The translations under genes were made by a program, and so were the position numbers. Below are positions 1 through 16,570 of a DNA stretch of 64,000 bases, in pieces; the stretch's first letter is position 1; every line of letters starts with the position of its first letter. The stretch lies in assembly GCA_002269645.1 (NCBI GenBank), contig NIVC01000176.1, positions 1 through 64,000 of the forward strand, given 5' to 3'. The notes below the pieces were generated by a model that was given only the letters and a program-made list of their open reading frames with translations, was not told where the DNA came from and ran no database searches. The DNA comes from Macrostomum lignano. Its lineage: Eukaryota.

Positions 1-1
1 A

Positions 2-1152
2 ATTGATTGGACTGCTTACTATCATGACAAAAGCTATAGAGATGCTGAAAAGACGTCTTCAACTCCAGAGGAAGCCCTAGCAAAGAAGCATTATTGCTGA
101 TGAAAAAATGATAGCTGATTTAGATGCTATTCCAACCAGCGACTTGTCGGTAAAGGAGAGACTCATTAGAAATCTAGTAAAGCGTATTATCAATGCTAAA
201 GTTCGGTTTGGATTAGGAATTCATACTCACAACCCCAACAATTGTATAGACTGTCTAACAATTTATGGTAAGGGTCTTAGCTATGAAGATGCAGTAAAAT
301 TGCATAGGGAATACAGAAAGCCAAGAGTATTTAGAAAAATGATTCACTATGCAAAAGACACAATTTGGCATGCAGATATCATTATCCTACCGCCCGAAAG
401 AGGTTACAAATATGCTCTCACTATCATAGATGGTTTTACACGTTACGCCTGGGCAGTTCCTTTGAAAACAAAGACGGGAGCGGAAGTTGCAGAAGCTTTC
501 CAAAAAGTATTTAAGGAATCAGGAAGACGATCAGAGAGACTTTGTGTAGATGAAGGCAAGGAGTTTTATAATCAGCATATGTACAAGCTATACTCGTTTT
601 CAAAAGACAACATTAGAAAGAAGGATGAAAGGGGTGAATATATTAACAAGATGTTTCAATTTATGGCGAGTCAAGAATGCAATGATTGAGAGGTTCAATC
701 GTACTCTCACAAATAAACTCTGGTTTGAATTTGATCTACAGGGTAATCAGAAGTGGCTCCACACATTGCCAGCTATTGTTGAAAAATACAACAACACAAT
801 CCATTCTGAGATTCTGATAACTCCTTCAGAAGCATCTAAACATCCTGAGCGAGTACCAAAGCCAACTTTCGAGTATTCAAATGAGAAACCAAACTTCAAA
901 GTAGGTGACAAAGTTCATATCTATAGATATAAGGAGCACTTTGAAAAGGGTCGAAGAGGATATTGGAAAATTTCAGAAGTGTTTAGGATAAAGAAAATAG
1001 TTTACTCCAATCCCATAACCTACATTATTGAGGATGAGAATGGAGAAGAAATCATTGGATCATTTTACAAATCCCAGCTTCTACCAGCAAATTTTTCAAC
1101 TAAAAATGAGCGCCTATCGAACAAACTGCAAACGGGCGAAAGGTCAGATTGA
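2..1152 (+). CDS. PLA2-like domain in frame with retroviral-type (rve) integrase; 5'-partial, frameshifted near 91 and 650-675
   Basis: Frame from nt 2 reads IDWTAYYHDKSY (HDxxY PLA2 motif); after a 1-nt shift near 91 it continues ADEKM...NAKVRFGLG. Integrase triad follows: WHADII (D), CVDEGKEF (D), MIERFNRTL (E), then the Maverick-type tail PITYIIEDENGEEIIGSFYKSQL. Joins track ORFs 108..689 and 550..1152. Confidence 0.88.
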
Positions 1153-1528
1153 AACGTCTGATTCACAACTACTAGCTGATAAAGAGGGTGAAGGAATTGG
1201 TGATATGATCAGTGGTGTCACAAACTTTTTATCAAATCATGGAAGTAAAATTGTGAGTGGAGCTGATGCAATAGGTAAAACAGCTACCACAGCGAAGAAC
1301 ATATTCGATGCGAAGAAATCATACAGTGACATGTCTAAAGCAGGTGAGGAACTGGAATATATTAAAAAGAAACGTAGAGATAAAGAAGCAAAGAAAAGAA
1401 TGGAAGAAGAGCAACAGATAGCTTCTCAATCAAATAAGGCTATTCAAGATATTGTTAAAAAGGCTCTAGGAACAGCAGAACAGTCTCAAGTGTCTTTGAG
1501 ACAAGGCAATGGTTTGAAGAAATTCTGA
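1106..1528 (+). CDS. Small putative virion core/membrane-lytic protein (amphipathic helix after GEG site)
   Basis: ATG at 1106 in the TAAAAATG context shared by neighbouring genes. KEGEG is followed by IGDMISGVTNFLSNHGSKIV, a charged coiled coil and RQGNG. Confidence 0.7.
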   Translation: MSAYRTNCKRAKGQIETSDSQLLADKEGEGIGDMISGVTNFLSNHGSKIVSGADAIGKTATTAKNIFDAKKSYSDMSKAGEELEYIKKKRRDKEAKKRMEEEQQIASQSNKAIQDIVKKALGTAEQSQVSLRQGNGLKKF

Positions 1529-1536
1529 CCTTAAAA

Positions 1537-1965
1537 ATGAGCGAGAAAAACACTGAAGCAAGACTCAATCGATATGTTCGAGAGGGAAAACCAAGATATG
1601 TTACTGTAAATAAGCAAAAGCAATATCTTTCTAAAGAGAAGATTCGAGAATTGCAAGAGAAACAGAAAGAACATGAAGGTGGAATAATTCCTCTATTAGG
1701 CTTACTACCAGCAATATTGGGTGGTATCGGAGCAGCCTCCGGAGTTGGTACAATGATTGCAAAAAGTGTTAATACAGCCAACAATGCTAAGCATAATAAG
1801 ACAATAGAAAGCATTGAACGACAAAAACTAGAAGAGTTGAAAAAGGCTCAAGGGAGTGGAGTGTTAGTTGATGCGGCTAAAAGAGTCGAACAAGTACCCA
1901 GCGAAGCAGTCAAGTGGCTGCTAAAGACTTTAAAGTTGAAAAGGAGAAACAGGGTAATGGGATAA
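1537..1965 (+). CDS. Basic core protein precursor with adenovirus pX(mu)-like hydrophobic segment
   Basis: 142 aa, TAAAAATG start, basic N-terminus, then GGIIPLLGLLPAILGGIGAASGVG and AQGSG. Confidence 0.72.
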   Translation: MSEKNTEARLNRYVREGKPRYVTVNKQKQYLSKEKIRELQEKQKEHEGGIIPLLGLLPAILGGIGAASGVGTMIAKSVNTANNAKHNKTIESIERQKLEELKKAQGSGVLVDAAKRVEQVPSEAVKWLLKTLKLKRRNRVMG

Positions 1966-2008
1966 TTCTTAGACCTCACGAAGCTTAGTTGAAATTTCTC
2001 GTATAAAA

Positions 2009-3370
2009 ATGGAGAACAAAAAGGATATACTGAACCTATATGAGGACAAAACTTTTAGCTTTTTCAAAAAGAAAGAAGACTATATTAAGATTTCTCCAAC
2101 ACCAGTAGCACTAATAATCTCAATGTTGCAGGAGGTCAAATAGTTCATGAAGTCAATTCAACAGAGTCATACATTCTCATGTCAGAGGCATTCGGTTGTA
2201 TAAAATACTCAATAACACAACGAGATAACACCGACTTGAATACGAACATTACTCTAGAACATAATTGGCCTATGAGACTTTTCTCTCAACTCATAGTTGA
2301 CATTGGAGGAACAAAGAAAGTCTATAATGATCCTGGAGAGTATGACACAATCTTAAAGTCCGTAATGTACTCAAAATTGATGAATGAAGTTGGAGAAGCA
2401 TACGGATGGATTCCAGACACTGGAGATGCTGGGACTGTTTCTGATATAGCTCTAGCAAACAACGCAGATGCTGAAGCTGTGAGAACTGCAGCAATCGCTA
2501 TGAAAAATAGACTCAATAAGAAGGATTCGAATACTGGATACATTAGGAGGCTTGAAAATTATAACAATGTCACTAATGCTCCAAACAGAGGTGGAACAAT
2601 CAAACTATCATTAACACCCCTCATTGGGTTCCTTGATTGGCAGAAGATTAGCAAAGGAATTAAATATAAATTCACATGGACAAGAAAGACTAACGATGCT
2701 GAAATTTTCTTTGGAGCTGCCGGGACGGAAGCTAAGTTAACTATTAATAGCTTTGAGATTTGGATCCCTGCTATTACTTTGTCACCCAGTGCTGAAGCAG
2801 CTTTTCTAAAATCACTCAACAAGGACATTACAGTATCATTTCCAGAGAGGGTAACGGTTCCGCCACAACTCATTCAAGGAAGTCCATATACATGGAACAT
2901 AGCCAACATCTCCAATATGCCACTTGCAATCTTTGTAGCTTTCAAATATGACGTAAACAACCCATCATATATAGTTAATGATCACAAGTATGTGTCTTAC
3001 AAAACTGGAGCAAATGCAGTGAAAATAACCCAGCTTCAAGTCAGATTAAATCAGGTGATGTATCCGAATGATTATGTTGAAATTGATCCAGTAGCTCAAG
3101 ACATTCACAGAGCATATGAAATGTACGGACATCTGCAGCCGTTTCGGTGTAACTCCACCATTTAATAAACAAGACTTTCTAACCATCTATCCAATCTTTT
3201 GCTTTGATCTAACAGCTCAGGATGAGTTTCTTGTCAAGAGTGGAGTGAATATTCAATTATTTATCAAGAAGTCAACTAATGTTGAGCTGACTGCTTTTGC
3301 ACTAATTCTTGAACAAACAAAGAATGTAATAAAAGTTACCAGTGAATATCAAATGACCCGCGTCGAATAA
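2009..3370 (+). CDS. Major capsid protein (double jelly-roll, Polinton type); two frameshifts near 2105 and 3126
   Basis: Starts at TAAAAATG (2009, MENKKDILNLYED). One added G gives ISPTPGSTNNLNVAGGQ, joining ORF 2179..3165; a second shift joins 3116..3370 with the Polinton MCP C-terminal motif YPIFCFDL. Reconstructed length about 450 aa; lies next to the ATPase. Confidence 0.85.
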
Positions 3371-3391
3371 GGTCATTTTTTCTTTTTTTAA

Positions 3392-4165
3392 ATGCCCAAA
3401 GTAAAATTTCAGCATGATCCTATTTTCCCTAATCCTCTTTTATGTTGTATTATCGGCGCTACAAATACGGGTAAAACATATTTACTATTCCATATTCTTA
3501 CAAGTCCTGAAAAACTAGTTGACTTTAATGAGTTAGTTTTATATGTTCCCAGAGCATCTCAAATGGATCCAGAGTATCAGTTTCTAAAATATGGCTTTGA
3601 AAATGGTCTCCCACCTTCTCTTATCAACTCACTCTATCATGTCTACCAGGTGAGTGAGGATGCATCTCCTGAAGATATTAGACATATTTGTCGAGAGGCA
3701 GCCAACCCTGGTCGAGTGCAAAGCACATCAGAAAATTCAGAAGTAATAGAGAAAATTCCTGTCACTCTTTCCCATACTCCAAATGAAGAAATTTTTCATA
3801 ATGGACTAAAGACATGTGTGATATTGGACGATGTTTTGGGAGAGGCTAATCAAACATTTCAGGAAAGTCTGTTTCAGAGAGGCAGGCATGGAAACTGTTG
3901 TGGTTTTTATCTAGCTCAAAATTTTACCAAACTAGATCGCAATACTGTCAGGGAGAATACGACATGTTACATAATCTTTAAACAAAAAGATACAAACTTA
4001 AATCACATTGCTAGAAATATAGAAACGAATTATGAACCCGCTATATTCAAGGCTAAATGTAGAGAGGCTTGGAAAAAGAAGTATGGCTATATCTATATAA
4101 ATACAAGAGCTGATGAGGATGAGCAAGATTTGTATAAGGATGTTCTAACTAAAATCCCATTGTAA
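3392..4165 (+). CDS. A32-like genome packaging ATPase
   Basis: Walker A GATNTGKT, Walker B CVILDD, and RGRHGN...AQNF...RNTVREN typical of the FtsK/A32 family; intact 257 aa. Confidence 0.93.
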   Translation: MPKVKFQHDPIFPNPLLCCIIGATNTGKTYLLFHILTSPEKLVDFNELVLYVPRASQMDPEYQFLKYGFENGLPPSLINSLYHVYQVSEDASPEDIRHICREAANPGRVQSTSENSEVIEKIPVTLSHTPNEEIFHNGLKTCVILDDVLGEANQTFQESLFQRGRHGNCCGFYLAQNFTKLDRNTVRENTTCYIIFKQKDTNLNHIARNIETNYEPAIFKAKCREAWKKKYGYIYINTRADEDEQDLYKDVLTKIPL

Positions 4166-4167
4166 AA

Positions 4168-4899
4168 ATGACTAATGAATATATAAGAGAACTCATTAAT
4201 TTAGCAAAGCAGCGAGAAATGTACAAATCCAGAAATGATGCTCAACGCTATTTGAAAATTGGAGAAGAGAGTTTATATGCAAGAGTGGCTCCATTAGCTC
4301 AAAAACCTGTCACAGAAAAGCTCGATGAATTTATTGATGTCAATGCCAACCTTGTTGATAAACTTCAGAATCAAAAAGTTCCAGTTCCGCAATCAAGTAC
4401 ACCAAAAGGCCGATTTGAACCCCTAGAAGTATTTGACAAAATAATTGAAGAAATTGGAAAGATTCCAATAACTCAAAGACCAGCGCCTAGTATACGGATT
4501 CAAAAAACTGATGCTGGATATATATTTGGATCATCTGTAATAGATGTTGAATTCCATGAACAAGGTCGAGACATCATTGTCAACGAATTTCGAATGCCAT
4601 TTTCTGAAGATCTTGAAGAGTTGTTCAAAATGCCTAAAGTAACTGAAAATGGTGAAGAGCTGAAGCAATTCAAGATGCAAACATTGCAGGATTATGTTAA
4701 CATCATTGAACATTGTAAAAATCCAGCGGCCAAATCAAGTGGGAATTATAAGCAAGCAGTAAGGATATTGAAAGATAATCCACCAGGATATCGAGTAAAA
4801 CCGGGATCTGGACTCAGTGAAAGAGTGTTAACTTTATTAGCCGCCAAGGCAGAAGGACATAATAATGTTGATAAAGAGCTAGCAGAATTACTTGCTTAA
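4168..4899 (+). CDS. Conserved Polinton-type hypothetical (putative core) protein
   Basis: 243 aa, TAAAAATG start. N-terminal helix with QKPVTEKL; C-terminal GSGLSERVLTLLAAKAEGHN resembles the RLxLLxAxxxAGN helix I recall from Maverick ORFs. Confidence 0.65.
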   Translation: MTNEYIRELINLAKQREMYKSRNDAQRYLKIGEESLYARVAPLAQKPVTEKLDEFIDVNANLVDKLQNQKVPVPQSSTPKGRFEPLEVFDKIIEEIGKIPITQRPAPSIRIQKTDAGYIFGSSVIDVEFHEQGRDIIVNEFRMPFSEDLEELFKMPKVTENGEELKQFKMQTLQDYVNIIEHCKNPAAKSSGNYKQAVRILKDNPPGYRVKPGSGLSERVLTLLAAKAEGHNNVDKELAELLA

Positions 4900-4901
4900 A
4901 A

Positions 4902-5697
4902 ATGGAAAAAGAAATAGAAAAAGTCAACATCCTCTTGAGTAAAAAGTTTCAACGCACATTTGACTTCTTTTCAATTAAAAACCCATTTCGACAAACTCTA
5001 GGCACTCCTATAAATTTGTATGAAGATCGAGAATACGAAGCTGGTATAAAAAAGTTTGCAGTCTTTGATGCTATTAACAATATTGAAGGAGGCAATAATG
5101 AGTTGCGATACTCGAGGGATAGTGGTAGAACATGGAAAAAAATAAAGATTCAAGCGGGATCTTGGGAAGTTAAAAGTCTGTCAAGCGAGATTCAAAGATT
5201 GCTAACAGCTGCAAATGATTGGAAAGAGGGGGCTATTGTTTTCAGTGCAAGCCTAGACACGCGTAGAGTTGAGTTACGGTTAGCCACAGATTATCAAGTT
5301 GATTTCAGGGATGCACATTCCAATAACTTTAGAAGACTGTTGGGATTCAATTCGGAAGTGTATTTGAAACCATTTGAGAGAGCTCCAAATCCAGCTCGGA
5401 TAGACGGAGCTAGAAGTGCGATCATGGTTCGTTGTCTAAATATCAAAGGGGGTTTATCACTGATCCAGCTAATGGAAATCATTTAATTGATAAGCAAATA
5501 CTTCTTTCAATTCCATCGTTCTCTGTCCCAATGGGAAGTAAAATTATTCAAGAGCCGCAAATCCTGTGTACCTACCACTAACTACAAACATGTTGAGCAC
5601 ATTCGACTTTGTCATCGAAGATGAGTCTGGTGTTCTATACGACTTTGATGGCGAGGAAATATTTATAAATCTCACATACGACAAATATGAGTGTTAA
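4902..5697 (+). CDS. Minor capsid (penton, single jelly-roll) protein; frameshifts near 5452 and 5560
   Basis: ORF 4902..5486 (IKIQAGSWEV, RRLLGFN, AIMVRC). Two +1 corrections continue it as GGFITD...EPQNPVYLPL...IEDESGVLYDFDGEEIFINL to TAA at 5695-5697, matching the Polinton minor capsid C-terminus. Confidence 0.82.
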
Positions 5698-5699
5698 AA

Positions 5700-6131
5700 A
5701 TGAGCGAAGCTGAGACATGGAATGCATTTAAACAAAAGTTTGGGACTGACACTACGACTAATATTGATCTGATAAATTGGGCAAAATATCTCAAGTTAAA
5801 ACCATTTCGCTATGCCATGAGAGATGAAATTGTTGATTTACCACAGTATGGTTACTTTATGACAAATATTCACACTTCGAAAGAACGGGGTATACATCAT
5901 TCAGCTATATTTTCAGCTCCTGATAAGGTTTATTTTTTTGATTCCTATGCACTACCGCCCACACTGGAAATTATGGAAAAGTTTAATCACACAAAGAATA
6001 GAATATGTGGAGACATGGAAGAACAAATTCAAACTTTTGATAAGAAATATTGTGGTCAAATGTCGCTGTACTTTTTACACCGAATCGATAAAGGAGATAG
6101 CTATAACGAAATTTTGCAGCAATTAAAATGA
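5700..6131 (+). CDS. Adenain-like (Ulp1 fold) cysteine maturation protease
   Basis: Catalytic His (RGIHHSA), Asp (YFFDSYALPP) and Gln/Cys (QIQTFDKKYCGQMSLYFL) in the expected order. The ATG at 5700 (TAAAAATG) is preferred over the GTG at 5691. Confidence 0.92.
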   Translation: MSEAETWNAFKQKFGTDTTTNIDLINWAKYLKLKPFRYAMRDEIVDLPQYGYFMTNIHTSKERGIHHSAIFSAPDKVYFFDSYALPPTLEIMEKFNHTKNRICGDMEEQIQTFDKKYCGQMSLYFLHRIDKGDSYNEILQQLK

Positions 6132-7535
6132 GTTACAAGAATACTGCCAATCAATTTGGTTACTCGTCAAATTCAAATGATATAGCACCTGGAATAACAA
6201 TAGCGTTAGCTGATGATCGCTACATCAATGAAAATGAAGGATATAAGAGAGAGGAAATAGATAATTTATTGTTAGCAAAGAGAAATGTTTCAGACTCTTA
6301 TTCAAAGGAAGATAGTGACGCAATGAATATCACCATGCTACAATTAATTGACGATGCTCATGGGCGCGTAAACAATGTCTACACAAAAACCGAAACTGAC
6401 ACTAAGATGTATTCTAAAACTGAGATTGACACTAAGATGTATTCTAAAACTGAGATTGACACTAAGATGTATTCTAAAACTGAGATTGACACTTTGTTAG
6501 CAGAATGGCAAGGTACTGCGGGAGGTACAGAGAGTTCGAAATTAGTCAATATTCTTTCATTACTGACTTCAAACGCTTCCCATTCTGACATGAAAGTGAC
6601 CGCTTCTCATAACTCTTCAGCAGCATATCATGTTGCAGATTCAAACCCAGCTTCAGATTGGAGCAGTGCAGATGACTCAGACAAGTGGATACGATTTCAA
6701 TTTTTGAAAAGAGCTAGGAAAGTTGTAGAGATAAAGTTGGAAGGAGAGGTGTGGCCTGGTTGGTCTGTTAGTGTGAGCCTAAATGGAACAAACTGGACAC
6801 CTGTTGAACAAAGTGCACCCATTGAACTACGAAGGGCAATGCACATCTTAGGAAAAAAATACCCAATCCCTCATATTATTTCCATTATTTCTTAATTTTT
6901 CTGGTTCCGTAAAGCTTACAAAAGTTGAATTACTTGAGAGACAAACAGTGGTTAATGATTTAGTGTGGCCTATAGATAGACTTCAAGCTGTACCAAAGCT
7001 ATACGTAGACAATGCACTTGAATCAGTGGAGCTGCGACTAAGGCGGGGACTAGGTTTCAAATCTTATACAGGATATATTCCCTCACTAGCAACACGTCAA
7101 AACTATAGAGAAAGGGGTTTCAATGTAGCGTCATCAGGAGCATTTGAAACGTCAGATAATTGGGGTTATATAGTATCTAATTCAGAATGGGCATCGAGGA
7201 ATGAACCCAATTCTTACATTGAAGTACAACTTCCCGAGTCTATTCAAATTTGGAAATTCGGATTGAAAGGAACCAAAGCAGTAGGTAGTGAAATTATAAA
7301 AAATCAACCAAAAAGTTTTATTCTGAAAGGGAGCAATAACAAGAGAGACTTTAGGAATATTTTTTCTACCGAAAACGCTGGTTTAGTTCCTGGAGTCATG
7401 AAATATTTTGAAGTAGCTTCCACCGAAAAATTCTCTGTTTATAGAGTGCATATTAATTCAGCCACTGAAGGATCAACCGTTCTTATTGTTTCAGGCTTTC
7501 AACTTTATCCGATTTTAGACATAATCGCCACATAA
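6128..7535 (+). CDS. Putative fibre/receptor-binding protein with YSKTEID repeats and two discoidin (F5/8 type C)-like domains; frameshifted at 6825-6895
   Basis: Contains 10-aa repeats MYSKTEIDTK, discoidin-like motifs (SDWSS...WIRFQF...WSVSVSLNGTNWT; EWAS...YIEVQLPE...PKSFILKGSNN...FSVYRVHI) and a KLYVD fibre motif. Two +1 corrections join ORFs 6128..6895 and 6948..7535. Confidence 0.72.
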
Positions 7536-7537
7536 AA

Positions 7538-8278
7538 ATGAATGAAAAAAATGAACACATCTATCCTGTGGTTGAGCTGCATGAAGCAGATTTGAGGGAG
7601 CGGGACTATTTCAATCAGAGAAAGGGTGAAATCAAAGGCAGTATTGAATGCATTACTAAAGATCTTACAATTTATAGCAAAAAGGTAAAAAAGTACAAAC
7701 GGCAAAGTAGCAGGATAAATTGGATCAACATTGTGACAGGAAATGTAAGTCTCTTGGCTGCTACAGGAATTGGCATAGCAACATCGATACTGACATTGAA
7801 TCCCTTAGTTATTGGAGTAGTAATCGGGGCAATGAGTGGTTTTGAAGCTGTAAAATCCACGTCGTTGTTTGCAACTGTGAAAATTCATTGCCAAAAGCAG
7901 AAGGCAAAATACATTGTTCTCAGAGATCTGGCAAATCAATATAGAGAGAGATTGTATATTTACTCCCAAAAAGCAGTTGATGATTATAGATTAACTCTTG
8001 AAGAGGTTCAAGCAGCTGCTGCAATTTATTCAGAATACAGAGAAAAAAGAGATCAATTGTTAGACGCCTGTGTTGCGCCTGAAGAAGTTAACCATTCGGA
8101 AGTCGTTGATAAAATCCTCAAAGAGAGTAGACTTGGTCATTCAGCGAAGGAAAAAATTAAAAAGGAATTACTAGAAAAAGATCTGAGAGAAAAATTGGGT
8201 CTAGCTGATAAGCCAAAAGAGTACTCGGCAACACTCAATCTTCAATCAAATGCTCCAAGTGCACCTCCCTACAATTAA
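7538..8278 (+). CDS. Viral protein with hydrophobic helical hairpin and C-terminal PSAP motif
   Basis: 246 aa, TAAAAATG start; about 50-aa hydrophobic Gly/Ala-rich stretch between coiled coils; ends APSAPPYN. Confidence 0.75.
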   Translation: MNEKNEHIYPVVELHEADLRERDYFNQRKGEIKGSIECITKDLTIYSKKVKKYKRQSSRINWINIVTGNVSLLAATGIGIATSILTLNPLVIGVVIGAMSGFEAVKSTSLFATVKIHCQKQKAKYIVLRDLANQYRERLYIYSQKAVDDYRLTLEEVQAAAAIYSEYREKRDQLLDACVAPEEVNHSEVVDKILKESRLGHSAKEKIKKELLEKDLREKLGLADKPKEYSATLNLQSNAPSAPPYN

Positions 8279-8303
8279 TATTGTATAATTTTTTTTCTAG
8301 AAA

Positions 8304-8609
8304 ATGGCTGCAATAAAAGTTCTCCTAAATGCATACCAAGATGAAATAAAGCGCATTGATAGAGAAATACAAATAAATAACTTTAGGGAGGTGCGTACAC
8401 ATTGTGGAATAATAGAACCGGATTATGGATATATTGATAAATTAAGTGATCGCAAATGTTTTCTTGAAACTGCTATTGTTTTTGCAGAAGCATTTATTGA
8501 AGATGAAATCGACAAGTTAGTTAAAAAAATAAAAGAGATCAGGAAGTATGTTGAGTTTAATGATCAGCGCAAGAAACTTCTTAAGCAATTGAATTGTTTG
8601 GTTTTTTAA
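8304..8609 (+). CDS. Small helical hypothetical viral protein
   Basis: 101-aa ORF with AAAATG start, converging tail-to-tail with PolB (2-nt gap). Confidence 0.55.
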   Translation: MAAIKVLLNAYQDEIKRIDREIQINNFREVRTHCGIIEPDYGYIDKLSDRKCFLETAIVFAEAFIEDEIDKLVKKIKEIRKYVEFNDQRKKLLKQLNCLVF

Positions 8610-8611
8610 AC

Positions 8612-11600
8612 TTATTTGAATCCATGAGGATGTGTTATAATTCCATTGGATTCAATGTATCTTTTGTCATCGAAAGGACTAATAGCCTTCTTATTTTGTT
8701 CTATTAAAGTCATGTTATGCTTGTCTGATCTAAGGCTATACACTTTCCTATAGACTGGTTCGTTATAATCAAGTAGTATATTTCTATAGTCATCATATTG
8801 TACATGATGCTTCACTGTTGACTTTGAGATTCCCTTTAATTTTTTCTCTTCCTTCCCTTCCTTTTGAGTGCTGACATAAACTGTTTTAAATGAATATGCT
8901 TTCGATCTTAGAGCGGTTACTTCTGTCATTATGCAATCATATTTTGCCAATTCATCCTTGAATGTTCCCAGCTTTCCACAATTATTCATATCATGTAAAT
9001 CAATCGGAAAATTTTTAGTATACAGCGACAAATCGAAATGCTCCTTCATCTGAGCAATGTCTTTATAAATATTTTCTGTCTTTATATGAAGAATGAATGA
9101 GTCGGTGTCAGAGGTAACAATCTCAACATTATCCCCCCATTTGGACTTGAAAACTTTGTAAAATGTTTCATACATATGCAATTTCGAGAGATCCAGAATT
9201 GCTTGTCCAGCGTATGTTGGCTTTGTTCCAAGAGGGATATTCTTAGGTCGCTGGTGAATGCAAATTAGATTTTCATTGAAGATTTTGAAGTCTATGAAAT
9301 CTGGCTTGGATATTATCTTAGATATCTCATCCTCACTTGTCAGCAACTCAAATCGCTTTCTCTTTTTAACATCCTCCATTGTCTTGCCAAAGATGCTTAC
9401 ATTAAGCATTTTGAACTGATTGTCTTCGAACTCAATTTTTGCTTCTTTTGCCTTCTTTCTTTCTATCGTATTAAACTCGATATACTCCTTTAACCATGGC
9501 TTTTCATTGAATGAAATCGTCCTATGTACTTTTGTCACTTTCAAGCCCATCTCTTCATAGAATCGCAATAGCTTATGATGTACGATATATTTTGTTTTAT
9601 TTTTTAAATTAAGGATCAATTTAGGAACTTTTCCAATCTTTTTCATTTCGACTTCTAGACATCCTTTCTGATATTCACTCAATTCACTTTCTGACACAGT
9701 TGTACTTTCAGGTGCTAATGGGAAGGCATACGTTTTCTTTTTTGATTCTTTTGTATATTCAAGATCACATTCAACAAGACAGCCCCGTCCTTCAGGAGGA
9801 TTTTTATAATAGTTGGAATCAGCTTCCCATTTAAAGTCAGAAAAAGGAAGGGGTTCCAACATACTATAACCATAGAGATTTGTACAATCAACGTAAAGTA
9901 AGTAGGAAGTTGGTTTTTCTAAATCATAGCCTGGAAGATAAGGATTATTTGCCTTTACATATCGTGACCCTAGAACTCCGCTAAATCCACCTCTTATTCC
10001 ACTATCAATCATATGAATCATATCGATATCCGCCAGCAAGTCTAACTCAACTTTACTTTTCTTCAACCCAGCATTCCAACTCAATCCTGGTGCTGAGAAG
10101 CATCTGGCTGGATCAATCTCAAAGTGTTTCAGGAAGAATGTTCTATAGCGTTCGAATACATCTGCTAATAATAGAACGTCAACCTTAAGATACAGCATCA
10201 TATAATCCTCCAAATTCTTACAATTAAAAGTTTTCCACATTTGTTTTGCAAAATCATATTCATCTGAAGAAATGTCTTCACCTTTCAACCTCGAGTAAAA
10301 CTCTTTCAATGGTGGTAACTCAGTTTCTGCTAATCTTCCAAAGCTTCTGATATACTCATATGGGAATACACCCTTGCGCTTAACATATTGAAAATCGCTG
10401 TCGTTTTTAAAGTATTTCTTTGTTATGATGAAGTCTTCATCCTTCAGGGACTTTGCGCAGATATCCAGCGAGGAAGCCAAGAACCTGTATGAATCTAGGA
10501 ACCTCAGTACTACTTTGTTACATCCAAACTCGAGAGAAATGTACTCTTCAGAAGTTTTAGATAGTGGAGGAAATAATTTATCCTCCATGGTCTCTTTGCT
10601 CTTTAAGTGTGTCACTAAGAAGTGAAAGTCATAGTGGGATCCATTCTGGAAGTAGATTGGGATTACTCGCTTCTTACTCTCGAGAGCATTGCAGGATTTA
10701 CAGGCAGCCCCTCTATATTTGCCACTATAGTGACAATGTTCTCTTACCTTACCTAGCTTAAGTGTAAAGTCATTTTTACAATTCGCACATTTTTCAGCCC
10801 TGTAAAACTCTTTCCATTGTTGCTTTGTGATCTTATATTTACTTATATTATTGCTCTTGTTCAGACATTTTTTGCACCAAGATTCTATAGTAACTTTACT
10901 GTCAATTTCCTTCACATGCACCTTCATATCTGGAACCATATCAAACTCCTCGCATATGTAGCATTGTTTAGCCTTACAGTAAGAAGCCTCCTCTTGCGCT
11001 GTCAAATTATGATTAATATGCTTAGGCTCCTTCAGACCATTCTTAATTTGTTGATAAATTTCAACCATTCTATCAACATATTTTTCCTTGGCATCTGTGC
11101 CACAATATCCTTCATACTTCGATTTAATTACCTCGGGTAACTCAGAATGGATATAAAAACCGTAAGCTATTGCGTTCTGATTTGCTACTTTTAGAGTATA
11201 TGACTCTTTGTCTAAAATCTTAGTGAAGCTTTTACTTTGTGCTTCAATGGGTTCAGTTGTTGCTTCAAAGTCAGCATAGATAGCGATGGGTAGCTTTAGT
11301 TTGAATATATGATTCTTAAATTTCAGCTTCGATTCTTCCTTAGGTAATTTATAAAGACCGGGTGCATTTTTACCGCACAACCTTGAGTGCTCGGCCAACA
11401 CGTTTTCACTTGTGTAAACAGTCATGCATGTTCTGCATAAAAATGACTTGTGATTTACACGCTTTCCAGTTTGTTTTGAAACTAATGTTGTAAGATTTTT
11501 TATCAGACAATAATGAGTCTTACCATCTTCCTCCAGGTATAGTAAATCTACTACATAAGTTCGTTGATTATGAGGTGAGACATAGAGATGTTGTAGTGTA

Positions 11601-12436
11601 TCTGGGAATTTACCTTCATAATACAGCACATTAACAGCAAACTCTTCATTTAGTCTTTCAAACTTTTTTATATCTTTTATTCTCATGGGGAATTGGATAT
11701 CGGTGAGATTAAGTTCTTTTTCATATGGTTTATATTTTGACACTCGATAACCATCTTTATTTTGTGGATGTTTAACAGCTAATACACACCAGAGGAAGCA
11801 TTTCTCATCATCATTCTGAATGTTAAGAATTGATCGACATTTTTTAATTTCATTGTTAGTAAAGAAGGATCCTCCCTGAATGCTAGAAACCTTGGCAACT
11901 CTGATGTAGATAGATTTTATCTGCACAAAGACATTATCTGATCCCTTCTCACAGAACTCATCAATGAACTTTTCCAATGTCTCCTGTCTTTCGCTAAGGG
12001 CAGTGTCATACTGTGAATCTGACTGAATATTGTAGAATCCACTTTCATTGTCATAGACTGTGAATGGAGGAATGTCTTCGTTAAAATTCTTTTTGAATTC
12101 TAGTTCAAAATGCAAGTTGAACTTACTCCGTCCACCATCTCTAACTTTCTCTAACACTGCTTTAATTGCATCTTCATACTGAATAAAAACCTTTGTTATA
12201 TAACCTTCATTAACATTCCTAATGACATACTCTGAAATTTCTGACTTCTTATTATACTTCTCTCTAAAGGATTTATGTAGTATTATTTCATCACCAATCT
12301 GCGGAGCTGCCACTTCATCTTCTTTGGACTCCGCTATAGGCTCATTATCTGTGTGCTTTTGCTGCTGACGCCGAAACCGCTCAGCTTGAATGTATTGTTC
12401 AAATTCTTCATCACTCATCTTTCTGAGTTGTTCCAT
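8612..12436 (-). CDS. pPolB: Protein-primed family B DNA polymerase with N-terminal terminal-protein/vOTU region
   Basis: Intact 1274 aa. ExoI IYADFE, ExoII FQNGSHYDFHFL, ExoIII YLKVDVLLLADVF; polymerase motifs YVDCTNLYG, KMLNVSIFGK, TSDTDSF; endonuclease VII-like Zn insert (EHCHYSGKYRGAACKSCN). Confidence 0.97.
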   Translation of the reverse strand: MEQLRKMSDEEFEQYIQAERFRRQQQKHTDNEPIAESKEDEVAAPQIGDEIILHKSFREKYNKKSEISEYVIRNVNEGYITKVFIQYEDAIKAVLEKVRDGGRSKFNLHFELEFKKNFNEDIPPFTVYDNESGFYNIQSDSQYDTALSERQETLEKFIDEFCEKGSDNVFVQIKSIYIRVAKVSSIQGGSFFTNNEIKKCRSILNIQNDDEKCFLWCVLAVKHPQNKDGYRVSKYKPYEKELNLTDIQFPMRIKDIKKFERLNEEFAVNVLYYEGKFPDTLQHLYVSPHNQRTYVVDLLYLEEDGKTHYCLIKNLTTLVSKQTGKRVNHKSFLCRTCMTVYTSENVLAEHSRLCGKNAPGLYKLPKEESKLKFKNHIFKLKLPIAIYADFEATTEPIEAQSKSFTKILDKESYTLKVANQNAIAYGFYIHSELPEVIKSKYEGYCGTDAKEKYVDRMVEIYQQIKNGLKEPKHINHNLTAQEEASYCKAKQCYICEEFDMVPDMKVHVKEIDSKVTIESWCKKCLNKSNNISKYKITKQQWKEFYRAEKCANCKNDFTLKLGKVREHCHYSGKYRGAACKSCNALESKKRVIPIYFQNGSHYDFHFLVTHLKSKETMEDKLFPPLSKTSEEYISLEFGCNKVVLRFLDSYRFLASSLDICAKSLKDEDFIITKKYFKNDSDFQYVKRKGVFPYEYIRSFGRLAETELPPLKEFYSRLKGEDISSDEYDFAKQMWKTFNCKNLEDYMMLYLKVDVLLLADVFERYRTFFLKHFEIDPARCFSAPGLSWNAGLKKSKVELDLLADIDMIHMIDSGIRGGFSGVLGSRYVKANNPYLPGYDLEKPTSYLLYVDCTNLYGYSMLEPLPFSDFKWEADSNYYKNPPEGRGCLVECDLEYTKESKKKTYAFPLAPESTTVSESELSEYQKGCLEVEMKKIGKVPKLILNLKNKTKYIVHHKLLRFYEEMGLKVTKVHRTISFNEKPWLKEYIEFNTIERKKAKEAKIEFEDNQFKMLNVSIFGKTMEDVKKRKRFELLTSEDEISKIISKPDFIDFKIFNENLICIHQRPKNIPLGTKPTYAGQAILDLSKLHMYETFYKVFKSKWGDNVEIVTSDTDSFILHIKTENIYKDIAQMKEHFDLSLYTKNFPIDLHDMNNCGKLGTFKDELAKYDCIMTEVTALRSKAYSFKTVYVSTQKEGKEEKKLKGISKSTVKHHVQYDDYRNILLDYNEPVYRKVYSLRSDKHNMTLIEQNKKAISPFDDKRYIESNGIITHPHGFK

Positions 12437-12545
12437 TTTTTATAAAATAAATTTAGCAGGAAAATTATGTAATGACGTTATAAATTTATTGTGGCATCCA
12501 CAGGATTAAGCAATTAGAAATGTATAAGCGATATTACAATAGGCA

Positions 12546-12832: not shown

Positions 12833-13468
12833 TCAGATCAGAAGTGCATCTTCCTCCTCTTCCTCCAGCATCTCCAGGGCTTTCTCAGCGTACTTGATTA
12901 TAGAACGTAGGCGAAACAGTGAGATGCCACAACGCCACAGAATTGGATGTGCTGTGCTTAGACGAGCCACTCGGACTAAATAGTTCCCCCACGCGGACTT
13001 AAAGCGTAGTCTAGACAAAAATACTTTATACTCCTCGTCACTCAATGAAAGCTTCATTCTTATTAATATCTGACCAGACTTAATTCCATACTGCAAGCCC
13101 CGGCACTGTAGCTCGTTTATCATTTTATCAATGGAATTAAGTTCTGTAATTGCATCCTGAAATTGATACTCTCCGTCCATAAATTCATTAATCTCTCCCG
13201 GCTCTTGATGCTCCATCGAATCCCGCAGTATTTTAGCAGCTTCTGCTATTCGTTCCTTTGTCTTGTCCACTCTCTCCAATCTACCTCGAAAAGTTGGAAT
13301 AGCAAACTTCTTCCTATTAAATTTTCTAGCAACCTTGTTATATTCTCCTATCCATTTCTTACAATGCTTTAAATCCCCACTACAAAAAATCTCCTTGATA
13401 AGACTATCGAGGTCGGATTCGAATGATGCCATTGCTGCCTCCATACGGGATTCTAAAATGTAGGGCAT
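12833..13468 (-). CDS. Viral hypothetical protein, possible DUF3102-like helical DNA-binding domain
   Basis: 211 aa with viral base composition; segment GQILIRMKLSLSDEEYKVFLSRLRFKSAWGNYLVRVARL; acidic tail. Confidence 0.6.
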   Translation of the reverse strand: MPYILESRMEAAMASFESDLDSLIKEIFCSGDLKHCKKWIGEYNKVARKFNRKKFAIPTFRGRLERVDKTKERIAEAAKILRDSMEHQEPGEINEFMDGEYQFQDAITELNSIDKMINELQCRGLQYGIKSGQILIRMKLSLSDEEYKVFLSRLRFKSAWGNYLVRVARLSTAHPILWRCGISLFRLRSIIKYAEKALEMLEEEEEDALLI

Positions 13469-15060: not shown

Positions 15061-15829
15061 GAGTTCCTGCGAGAGCCTATTTGACCATACGCTTCACTCA
15101 GTGTGGGTTTCGCACGACGTTAAAGCTGAGTCACAATATAAAAATTGCTTTGAGGAGAATTTCTCCTGCTATTTGTTCCATTTTTAAGATACATAATTTA
15201 GAAAAGGGTTAGTGAAATCGTCCGTAGGTAGGGTCGCGAGAGCATTGTTCGTTTGTAACTTGCGTGGCCCACTTCATGTCTTTTTTTACAGCTAGATAGA
15301 GGGTGAACACAAAAGATTTGCACGAGCCACTCCTATTGGATGCCAAAACCAAACACTTTTTGGCAGAAATTTTGGCAAAAATTTTGGTTTTGGCAGAAAT
15401 TTTGGCAGCCAATAGAAATGTTCAGTGCTGCGGTTATGTATAGTTAGTTTGGTGAGTTCCTGCGAGAGCCTATTTGACCATACGCTTCACTCAGTGTGGG
15501 TTTCGCACGACGTTAAAGCTGAGTCACAATATAAAAATTGCTTTGAGGAGAATTTCTCCTGCTATTTGTTCCATTTTTAAGATACATAATTTAGAAAAGG
15601 GTTAGTGAAATCGTCCGTAGGTAGGGTCGCGAGAGCATTGTTCGTTTGTAACTTGCGTGGCCCACTTCATGTCTTTTTTTACAGCTAGATAGAGGGTGAA
15701 CACAAAAGATTTGCACGAGCCACTCCTATTGGATGCCAAAACCAAACACTTTTTGGCAGAAATTTTGGCAAAAATTTTGGTTTTGGCAGAAATTTTGGCA
15801 GCCAATAGAAATGTTGAGTGCTGCGGTTA
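15061..15829. repeat. Two near-identical direct repeats of about 376 bp (period 393 bp)
   Basis: Copies at 15061-15436 and 15454-15829; the identical spurious ORFs 15209..15412 and 15602..15805 confirm the 393-bp offset. Confidence 0.93.
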
Positions 15830-16348
15830 GTGCTCTAGTAGTCGAGTATGCATGCCACGAAAAATTTAAATTAGCGCTCCATGTTCTTGAATGTCTTCTA
15901 TTATCTTTAAGTACAAATCTAGAACAGCATTAAAGCCATTTCAAAGCCTCGGGACAAAGCGAATGTGCAGGAGCAAATTATTGACTTTTGTAAAAGCATT
16001 GTATGCCTCGAGTGGACAATTTTTATGCATAGATGGTAGCTGACTGATCGTTAAAAGCAAAGCTAGTAAGATTGGCTTATTGAAGGGCGTTATGCAATGG
16101 GAGAAAAGACTATTATTAAATTTGATGCTAGTTTTGAAATGATGAAACCTGAAAATAGGTTATTTTAACCCACGAATCAAAAATTTCTTGTGGTTTTACT
16201 CACGAAATCGCGCAAAAAGCAATTTTTCGAAACTTTTGAAAAATCACTAAAATCACTGTTTTCAGACAATTTTCACCTGTTTTTAGTCGATTTTTATCTG
16301 TTTTTTGTGATTTTTCAAAATGGGTTGCGCTCAAACCTACTTTTCCTA

Positions 16349-16570
16349 TACTACTTCCCACAAATATCCCAAAATGCCATTGAAATCCCACAAATATCCC
16401 AAAATCCCATTAAAATCCCACAAATATCCCAAAATGCCATTGAAATCCCACAAATATCCCAAAATCCCATTAAAATCCCACAAATATCCCAAAATGCCAT
16501 TGAAATCCCACAAATATCCCAAAATGCCATTGAAATCCCGCAAATATCCCAAATTGCCATTGAAATCCTA
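16349..16570. repeat. 30-bp intronic minisatellite
   Basis: About 7 copies of cacaaatatcccaaaatgccattgaaatcc. Confidence 0.9.

Follow-up and report, generated by a model that had tools for sequence, protein, structure and literature searches.

Most genes of a Polinton in the genome of Macrostomum lignano are preceded by a two-part signal, AAATT-N7-TAAAA-ATG, in which an AT-rich box lies at a fixed distance ahead of a TAAAA that abuts the start codon. The element, designated family A, occupies positions 1 to ~16,355 of the 64,000-nucleotide stretch analyzed here (the window; contig NIVC01000176.1), its left end lying outside. The signal is fixed in its spacing, independent of upstream stops and restricted to AT-rich Polinton families; it is real and larger than an earlier note on this DNA had recognized, and the literature searched appears to contain no description of it for animal Polintons. 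Judging from its anatomy, it is probably a compact, nearly leaderless promoter carried by each gene; that such per-gene promoters would, overall, be read by a helper large DNA virus we consider an evenly balanced proposition. Polintons encode capsids and, in the available text of a recent study, are described as having no RNA polymerase and no observed virions (10.64898/2026.06.19.733378). How they express their genes without an RNA polymerase of their own is the question addressed, and a 20-base signal common to three families makes it testable.

A two-part signal at gene starts

The earlier note had described a stop-start or promoter motif ahead of almost every viral gene; all of its sites are present, and at each of them a viral reading frame begins with the ATG. 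The exact sequence TAAAAATG stands at 1101, 1532, 2004, 4163, 4897, 5695 and 7533, with variants at 3389 (TAAATG), 6124 (TAAAATG), 8298 (TAGAAAATG) and, on the minus strand before the gene for DNA polymerase B of the protein-primed type (pPolB), 12442 (TAAAAAATG). The signals in full are as follows.

1089..1108, plus strand: AAATT-N7-TAAAA-ATG before a 140-aa open reading frame (ORF), within the integrase coding sequence
1520..1539, plus strand: AAATT-N7-TAAAA-ATG before the ORF at 1537
1992..2011, plus strand: AAATT-N7-TAAAA-ATG before the major capsid gene
3375..3394, plus strand: T-run and TAAATG before the packaging ATPase gene; no AAATT box; the sole strict poxvirus-late-type site
4151..4170, plus strand: AAAAT-N7-TAAAA-ATG; TAA doubles as the ATPase stop
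4885..4904, plus strand: GAATT-N7-TAAAA-ATG; TAA doubles as the stop of a 243-aa ORF
5683..5702, plus strand: AAATA-N7-TAAAA-ATG before a protease-like gene, with an out-of-frame ATG 14 bases upstream
6109..6130, plus strand: AAATT box and TAAA-ATG before a fibre-like gene; the ATG overlaps the protease stop (ATGA)
7521..7540, plus strand: ATAAT-N7-TAAAA-ATG; TAA doubles as the stop of the fibre-like frame
8286..8306, plus strand: variant with TAATT, T-run and TAGAAA-ATG; also resembles a splice acceptor
12434..12454, minus strand: AAATT box and TAAAAA-ATG before pPolB
15179..15199, minus strand: motif copy in the right terminal inverted repeat, facing inward
15572..15592, minus strand: second inward-facing motif copy, from a 393-bp duplication

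The upstream box had escaped the earlier note. At all seven exact sites it ends exactly seven bases before TAAAA-ATG (positions -17 to -13: AAATT, AAATT, AAATT, AAAAT, GAATT, AAATA and ATAAT); the spacers are unrelated and unconstrained, and several boxes fall within the coding sequence of the preceding gene. TAAAAATG occurs 16 times in the whole window against 4.1 expected, a count reached in 0 of 100 shuffles (seven are the listed starts, two lie in the right terminal repeat, three in the pPolB region and four in host DNA). When the first ATG of every ORF is taken, without selection, T-A(2-7)-ATG marks 8 of the 15 starts in the element, compared with 20 of its 583 other ATGs (p=4e-8); this first-ATG rule, which defines the start counts, misses true starts in frameshifted copies. 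Beyond the range of the earlier note, the ORFs at 13468 (minus) and 14182 (plus) lack the motif.

Because the box was first spotted post hoc, a caution in its own right, its profile was tested in other Polinton families of the genome, which holds two further AT-rich families, B and C (the family B ATPase is ~30% identical to that of family A), and a fourth, GC-rich family, D (44-46% GC). Trained solely on the seven window boxes, the profile scores 17 family B starts above 156 non-start ATGs (p=1e-4) and 11 family C starts above 82 (p=6e-5), these null ATGs being mostly coding; its mean score over the 28 B and C starts is maximal at -17/-18, and composition does not explain this positional peak. 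In family D the box is absent by the same profile (p=0.88). The initiator, T-A(2-7)-ATG, occurs at 24/42 first-ATG starts in family A, 39/57 in B, 13/35 in C and just 1/48 in D, compared with 2.5-6.7% of other ATGs, copies within one family not being independent in these counts. A T directly precedes the A-run at 28 of 36 starts in families A-C versus 39.5% of all A-runs (p=3e-6). Such a T is not something that a Kozak context demands, and the signal therefore goes beyond mere A-richness around the start codon. The comparison with host starts that the earlier note had called for bears out the enrichment: the initiator is found at 2 of 26 distinct host contexts, and at none of the 26 with at least four A's, far below the AT-rich families, on a small baseline of histone H3, actin, alpha-tubulin and HSP70 genes (beta-tubulin loci were unmatched by the pattern). 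An A-rich context does precede a host KCTD-like start (CAAAAATG), as that note had cautioned, but the motif's T is absent there.

The initiator also appears outside this genome. Among 30 distinct IMG/VR contigs with the same polymerase type, retrieved by pPolB and ATPase alignment, seven have TAAA at most seven bases from 57-100% of their starts (13/16, 10/14, 13/13, 7/8, 8/14, 9/13 and 6/9) versus 5-13% of other ATGs; in these the TAAA-to-ATG distance is variable, and an A-then-T tract lies further upstream. Two of the 30 are too short to judge, and IMG/VR contig L232 is a canonical Polinton. A quick pPolB tree of 45 rows, with SH-aLRT (Shimodaira-Hasegawa-like approximate likelihood ratio test) support only, three supplied rows dropped and five IMG/VR loci not included, groups the family A and B polymerases with environmental proteins (100) and places a Stylophora protein together with the three strongest IMG/VR contigs (97); the remaining four of the seven contigs are dispersed, and family D is distant. 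The TAAA start trait is thus patchy across the tree, and we claim no origin for it. A different arrangement is seen in virophage-like IMG/VR contigs (L233-L238), which carry TCTA...TATA-ATG of the mavirus and Cafeteria roenbergensis virus (CroV) type before most genes. Two viral scans with close ATPase queries returned nothing and a phage collection gave no match; the single match of a metagenome scan was a bacterial false positive.

The element and its relatives

Together, pPolB and an rve integrase, a double jelly-roll capsid, an A32 ATPase and a protease (the last via its family C counterpart only), and terminal inverted repeats with AGT-repeat ends place the element among the Polintons/Mavericks (Polintoviricetes). 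A 1-kb probe finds 41 genome matches, most 98-100% identical. Its recognizable features are these.

1..1152, plus strand: rve integrase (PF00665), frameshifted in the window copy
2009..3370, plus strand: double jelly-roll major capsid protein (MCP; PF21738), frameshifted in the window copy
3392..4165, plus strand: A32-like packaging ATPase (PF04665)
4902..5690, plus strand: probable minor capsid, from position and size; frameshifted in the window copy
5700..6131, plus strand: putative adenain-like protease; the family C counterpart matches PF00770
6128..7535, plus strand: fibre-like gene with F5/8 type C domains, frameshifted in the window copy
8612..12436, minus strand: pPolB with an endonuclease VII-like domain; homologs include PF03175-annotated and coral proteins
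15061..16355, strand not assigned: right terminal inverted repeat, terminating in ACTACT at 16350-16355

The integrase start lies left of the window and is motif-bearing in other family A copies. The right end of the window element is an inverted match to the left end of another family A copy, and AGTAGTAGT stands at the terminus of copy L070; such AGT-repeat ends are what we take to be the expected Polinton terminus. The left terminus of L070 (5322-5422) is a 100-base palindrome that begins with AGTAGTAGT, and terminal repeats vary between family A copies, with ~72% identity to those of the window. In domain and homology searches no element ORF matched a polymerase for transcription, a capping enzyme or a transcription factor; several match no known family, and atlas searches with two of these gave no usable lead. 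Adjoining the element end is a host bleomycin hydrolase-like exon (PF03051; 16568-17101, minus strand), followed by a long 28-bp tandem array.

Some family A copies, not others, hold an 870-bp cargo ORF in the integrase 5' region (L070:5967-6842), and this inserted ORF has its own AT box and TAAAA-ATG. In family B, two very different pPolB genes (L042 vs L043, L048) follow a nearly identical start signal, which suggests polymerase exchange, as in nematode Polintons. The stretch at 8286..8306 precedes a different gene in another copy: at a mosaic locus combining family A and C genes (L069:9289 to L031:5960), which also has a D5/PriCT-2 primase-helicase, the stretch ahead of window ORF 8304 precedes another pPolB-type gene. 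At the family C protease start (region of L214:4530-4560) a tandem-doubled signal creates, in some copies, a Met-Thr-stop mini-frame directly before the ATG. Family D (L162:3285-5750, L164-L167, L178-L179) differs from families A-C in that 9 of its 48 starts have TAG one to three bases ahead of the ATG, often as the upstream stop (TAG-AC-ATG), versus 4% of all ATGs; this context is a candidate for stop-start coupling or for trans-splice acceptors, and window ORF 14182 starts in the same one (TAGAC-ATG). A further high-copy, GC-rich family (L170-L175, L180-L181) has a pPolB-like gene and no capsid-sized ORFs in the 20 kb examined.

Reading the signal

The earlier note had left a choice between a promoter read by a helper virus and coupled termination-reinitiation on a polycistronic mRNA. 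Among 76 motif-bearing starts in ten copies of families A-C, the TAA is the upstream stop at 4; another 5 are in close tandem and 45 in more distant tandem (a class that frameshifts inflate); 12 are head-to-head, and 10 lack any upstream ORF. Only 9 of the 76 therefore begin a few bases from a same-strand upstream stop, and the motif also stands at first genes, head-to-head pairs and the cargo ORF, where reinitiation is inapplicable; reinitiation thus does not account for the signal. Head-to-head ATGs lie 34 and 27 bp apart in family B and 30 bp in family C, where the strict motif is on one side only; the first gene after the left terminal repeat carries the full signal. In the window itself, the claim that four TAAs are upstream stops stands for 4163, 4897 and 7533 and fails for 5695, whose TAA closes only a frameshifted 51-codon fragment, the gene of another copy ending at a TGA four bases earlier. 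The T-runs reported after MCP and ORF 7538 exist and double as the upstream part of the next gene's signal.

A broader translational account, in which an A-rich start context in a compact AT-rich genome serves reinitiation on polycistronic or overlapping mRNAs and the T and AT tract are by-products, is in our judgment unlikely, even though several observations suit it. In addition to the three stops just named and one ATGA overlap, the TAAs at 1532, 2004 and 3389 are in-frame second stops; A at -3 is common in host starts (14/26); the box in families A-C is better phased on the ATG (8.9 bits) than on the T of TAAA (7.4 bits), so that a translation signal fits too; and upstream ATGs are mildly scarce (23 vs 31; 18 vs 30), as expected if leaders are scanned. 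Against these stand the 22 motif starts that are head-to-head or first genes, the occurrence of the motif at just 3-7% of composition-matched ATGs, the T enriched ahead of the A-run and the peaking of the box at one position in independent families; in three IMG/VR contigs alone, the box is slightly better phased on the T (4% of permutations). We consider it highly improbable that the T-rich tract and A-run mark sites of spliced-leader trans-splicing, at which a polycistronic precursor would be divided into individual mRNAs. Trans-splicing does resolve operons in flatworms (PMC8629364), and site 8298 and a few family B and C starts read pyrimidine tract-AG-A-run-ATG, yet TAAAA contains no AG, and an acceptor-like YAG no more than 12 bases from the ATG is found at just 2 of the 39 motif starts of families A-C and 0 of 36 in the three IMG/VR contigs; this rarity argues against it.

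The anatomy of a per-gene promoter would be the same if host RNA polymerase II (Pol II) transcribed the genes in the nucleus from such compact, nearly leaderless promoters, perhaps with an element-encoded or host factor and without any helper, a reading we hold to be rather unlikely but not negligible. The ~40 near-identical integrated copies indicate recent nuclear activity, several element ORFs belong to no known family, and host RNA-seq of corals shows expression of polintovirus genes, the available text naming no helper (PMC11131425). However, the box lies 8-13 bases from the presumed start, far closer than the ~24 bp of TATA and its TFIIB recognition element (BRE; PMC7163114); two opposed initiation complexes would need to fit within 27-34 bp; and the motif is absent from host starts and from the host-like, GC-rich family D. 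AATAAA is unavoided within family B genes (22-33 copies per element) and undepleted in coding sequences of A-C generally, but it is also undepleted in family D, which makes the control uninformative; T5 shows depletion in coding sequences (z -1.0 to -2.8), as for the most part does A6, and T5NT has no consistent trend.

We therefore return to a per-gene promoter, which the fixed-distance box, the first and head-to-head genes, the absence from host and family D starts and the TAAA of unrelated viral contigs all favor, and to a helper as the reader that we infer for it. The AT box would be the core element and TAAA the initiator; with transcription starting within the A-run, a few bases short of the ATG, the mRNAs would be monocistronic and almost leaderless, their 5' ends possibly carrying poly(A) from slippage. 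The likeliest reader of the signal, rather than Pol II, would be the RNA polymerase of a co-infecting poxvirus- or asfarvirus-like large DNA virus, and the element would then behave as a virophage resident in the host genome, expressed upon helper infection. Besides the coral expression, the second stops, the ATG phasing and the scarce upstream ATGs, several points weigh against this proposal: TAAA is common in AT-rich DNA; one motif serves replication, integration and capsid genes, with no early and late classes; 21 of the 30 IMG/VR contigs lack the TAAA pattern, several having TATA-type starts; the family A-trained box has no enriched score at -17 in IMG/VR starts (p=0.22); and the combination of spacer and initiator matches no single known promoter class exactly. 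Hallmarks of nucleocytoplasmic large DNA viruses (PF04947, PF04451, PF04441) were not found in the assembly, a negative that shows little because the controls were silent too. Contigs of four sequencing runs presumed to be RNA cover the element, but those of three, aligned to another copy, also span the terminal repeat and host flank, as do those of an unclassified run, and these runs may therefore hold DNA; among the matches listed, from assembled and possibly DNA-derived contigs, no poly(A) or leader-like loose end was found at a start.

Likeness to known promoter systems

No promoter analysis of animal Polintons was found in the literature searched, subscription papers and supplements lying outside its scope. 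By word search, "promoter" is absent from the main texts, as available, of PMC11296320, PMC8502044, PMC11161782, PMC11131425, 10.1101/2023.08.22.554363, 10.64898/2026.06.19.733378 and 10.1101/2025.04.19.649669, and the first of these, in its available main text, also lacks "motif" and "transcription". The kind of phenomenon, promoter mimicry by small integrating DNA viruses, is already known; the M. lignano signal would be a variant of it. Virophages and polinton-like viruses have promoters in common with their helpers (PMC8547959; 10.1101/2022.07.28.501842), and integrated protist virophages carry family-specific helper promoters (PMC8547959). Endogenous virophages have so far been shown in protists; were the signal a helper-virus promoter, they would occur in animals too, and the motif would be a pointer to a large DNA virus of this host. 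With somewhat less confidence, we suggest that a widespread lineage of animal Polintons may consist of true virophages with a poxvirus/asfarvirus-style promoter on every gene, silent until a large DNA virus of marine invertebrates, still to be discovered, transcribes them, while the GC-rich Polintons in the same genome use host machinery. Were this so, the motifs close to gene starts would distinguish helper-dependent from host-transcribed Polintons and predict the type of helper.

The earlier note had pointed to poxvirus late promoters. In vaccinia, the RNA polymerase makes contact with a TAAA at -1..+3 that has an AT-rich core ahead of it (PMC12917281), and the late core lies 5-7 bp from TAAAT (PMC5294985). 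Vaccinia intermediate and late promoters share with the Polinton an AT-rich upstream core at a fixed distance, a free spacer, TAAA(T) abutting the ATG and upstream T-runs. The proposed likeness to late TAAAT(G) holds in a looser form: strict TAAAT occurs at one of 11 sites (3389), and a TAAA initiator, as in vaccinia intermediate promoters, TAAAN of the yeast virus-like elements and TA-NA of African swine fever virus (ASFV), fits better. The spacer of seven fits late promoters and not the 12 bases of intermediate ones; moreover, unlike vaccinia, the Polinton has no recognized RNA polymerase, and its start sites are predicted from sequence only. ASFV promoters are similar in their intergenic poly(T) and in their AT boxes, which lie 4-10 bp ahead of a TA-NA/TA-TA initiator, at a distance that the study describing it regards as incompatible with a classical Pol II complex (PMC7163114), whereas the Polinton lacks the 19-nt early promoter motif (EPM) that ASFV has beside its late one (LPM), uses one motif for all gene classes and has only putative poly(T) termination. 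The linear elements pGKL1/2 of yeast, pPolB-bearing relatives of Polintons, use a TAAAN initiator at which slippage gives 5' poly(A) leaders (PMC6211774); they have their own RNA polymerase and capping enzyme and are not integrated, whereas the Polinton has a capsid and an integrase, and no such enzymes were detected in it.

Further comparisons are with mavirus and the endogenous mavirus-like elements (EMALEs), which use the TCTA motif of CroV, and Gezel-14T, which uses AAAATTGA of Phaeocystis globosa virus (PgV): all are integrated small DNA viruses in which a single motif precedes most genes, and families within one host genome differ in their motif class. Their hosts are protists and their helpers of the Mimiviridae type, whereas here the host is an animal, the element a canonical rve-integrase Polinton, the motif of the TAAA type and the helper putative. 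Polinton-like viruses found with entomopoxviruses, and proposed to be poxvirus parasites (PMC11296320), are likewise animal Polinton relatives, although two of them lack an integrase.

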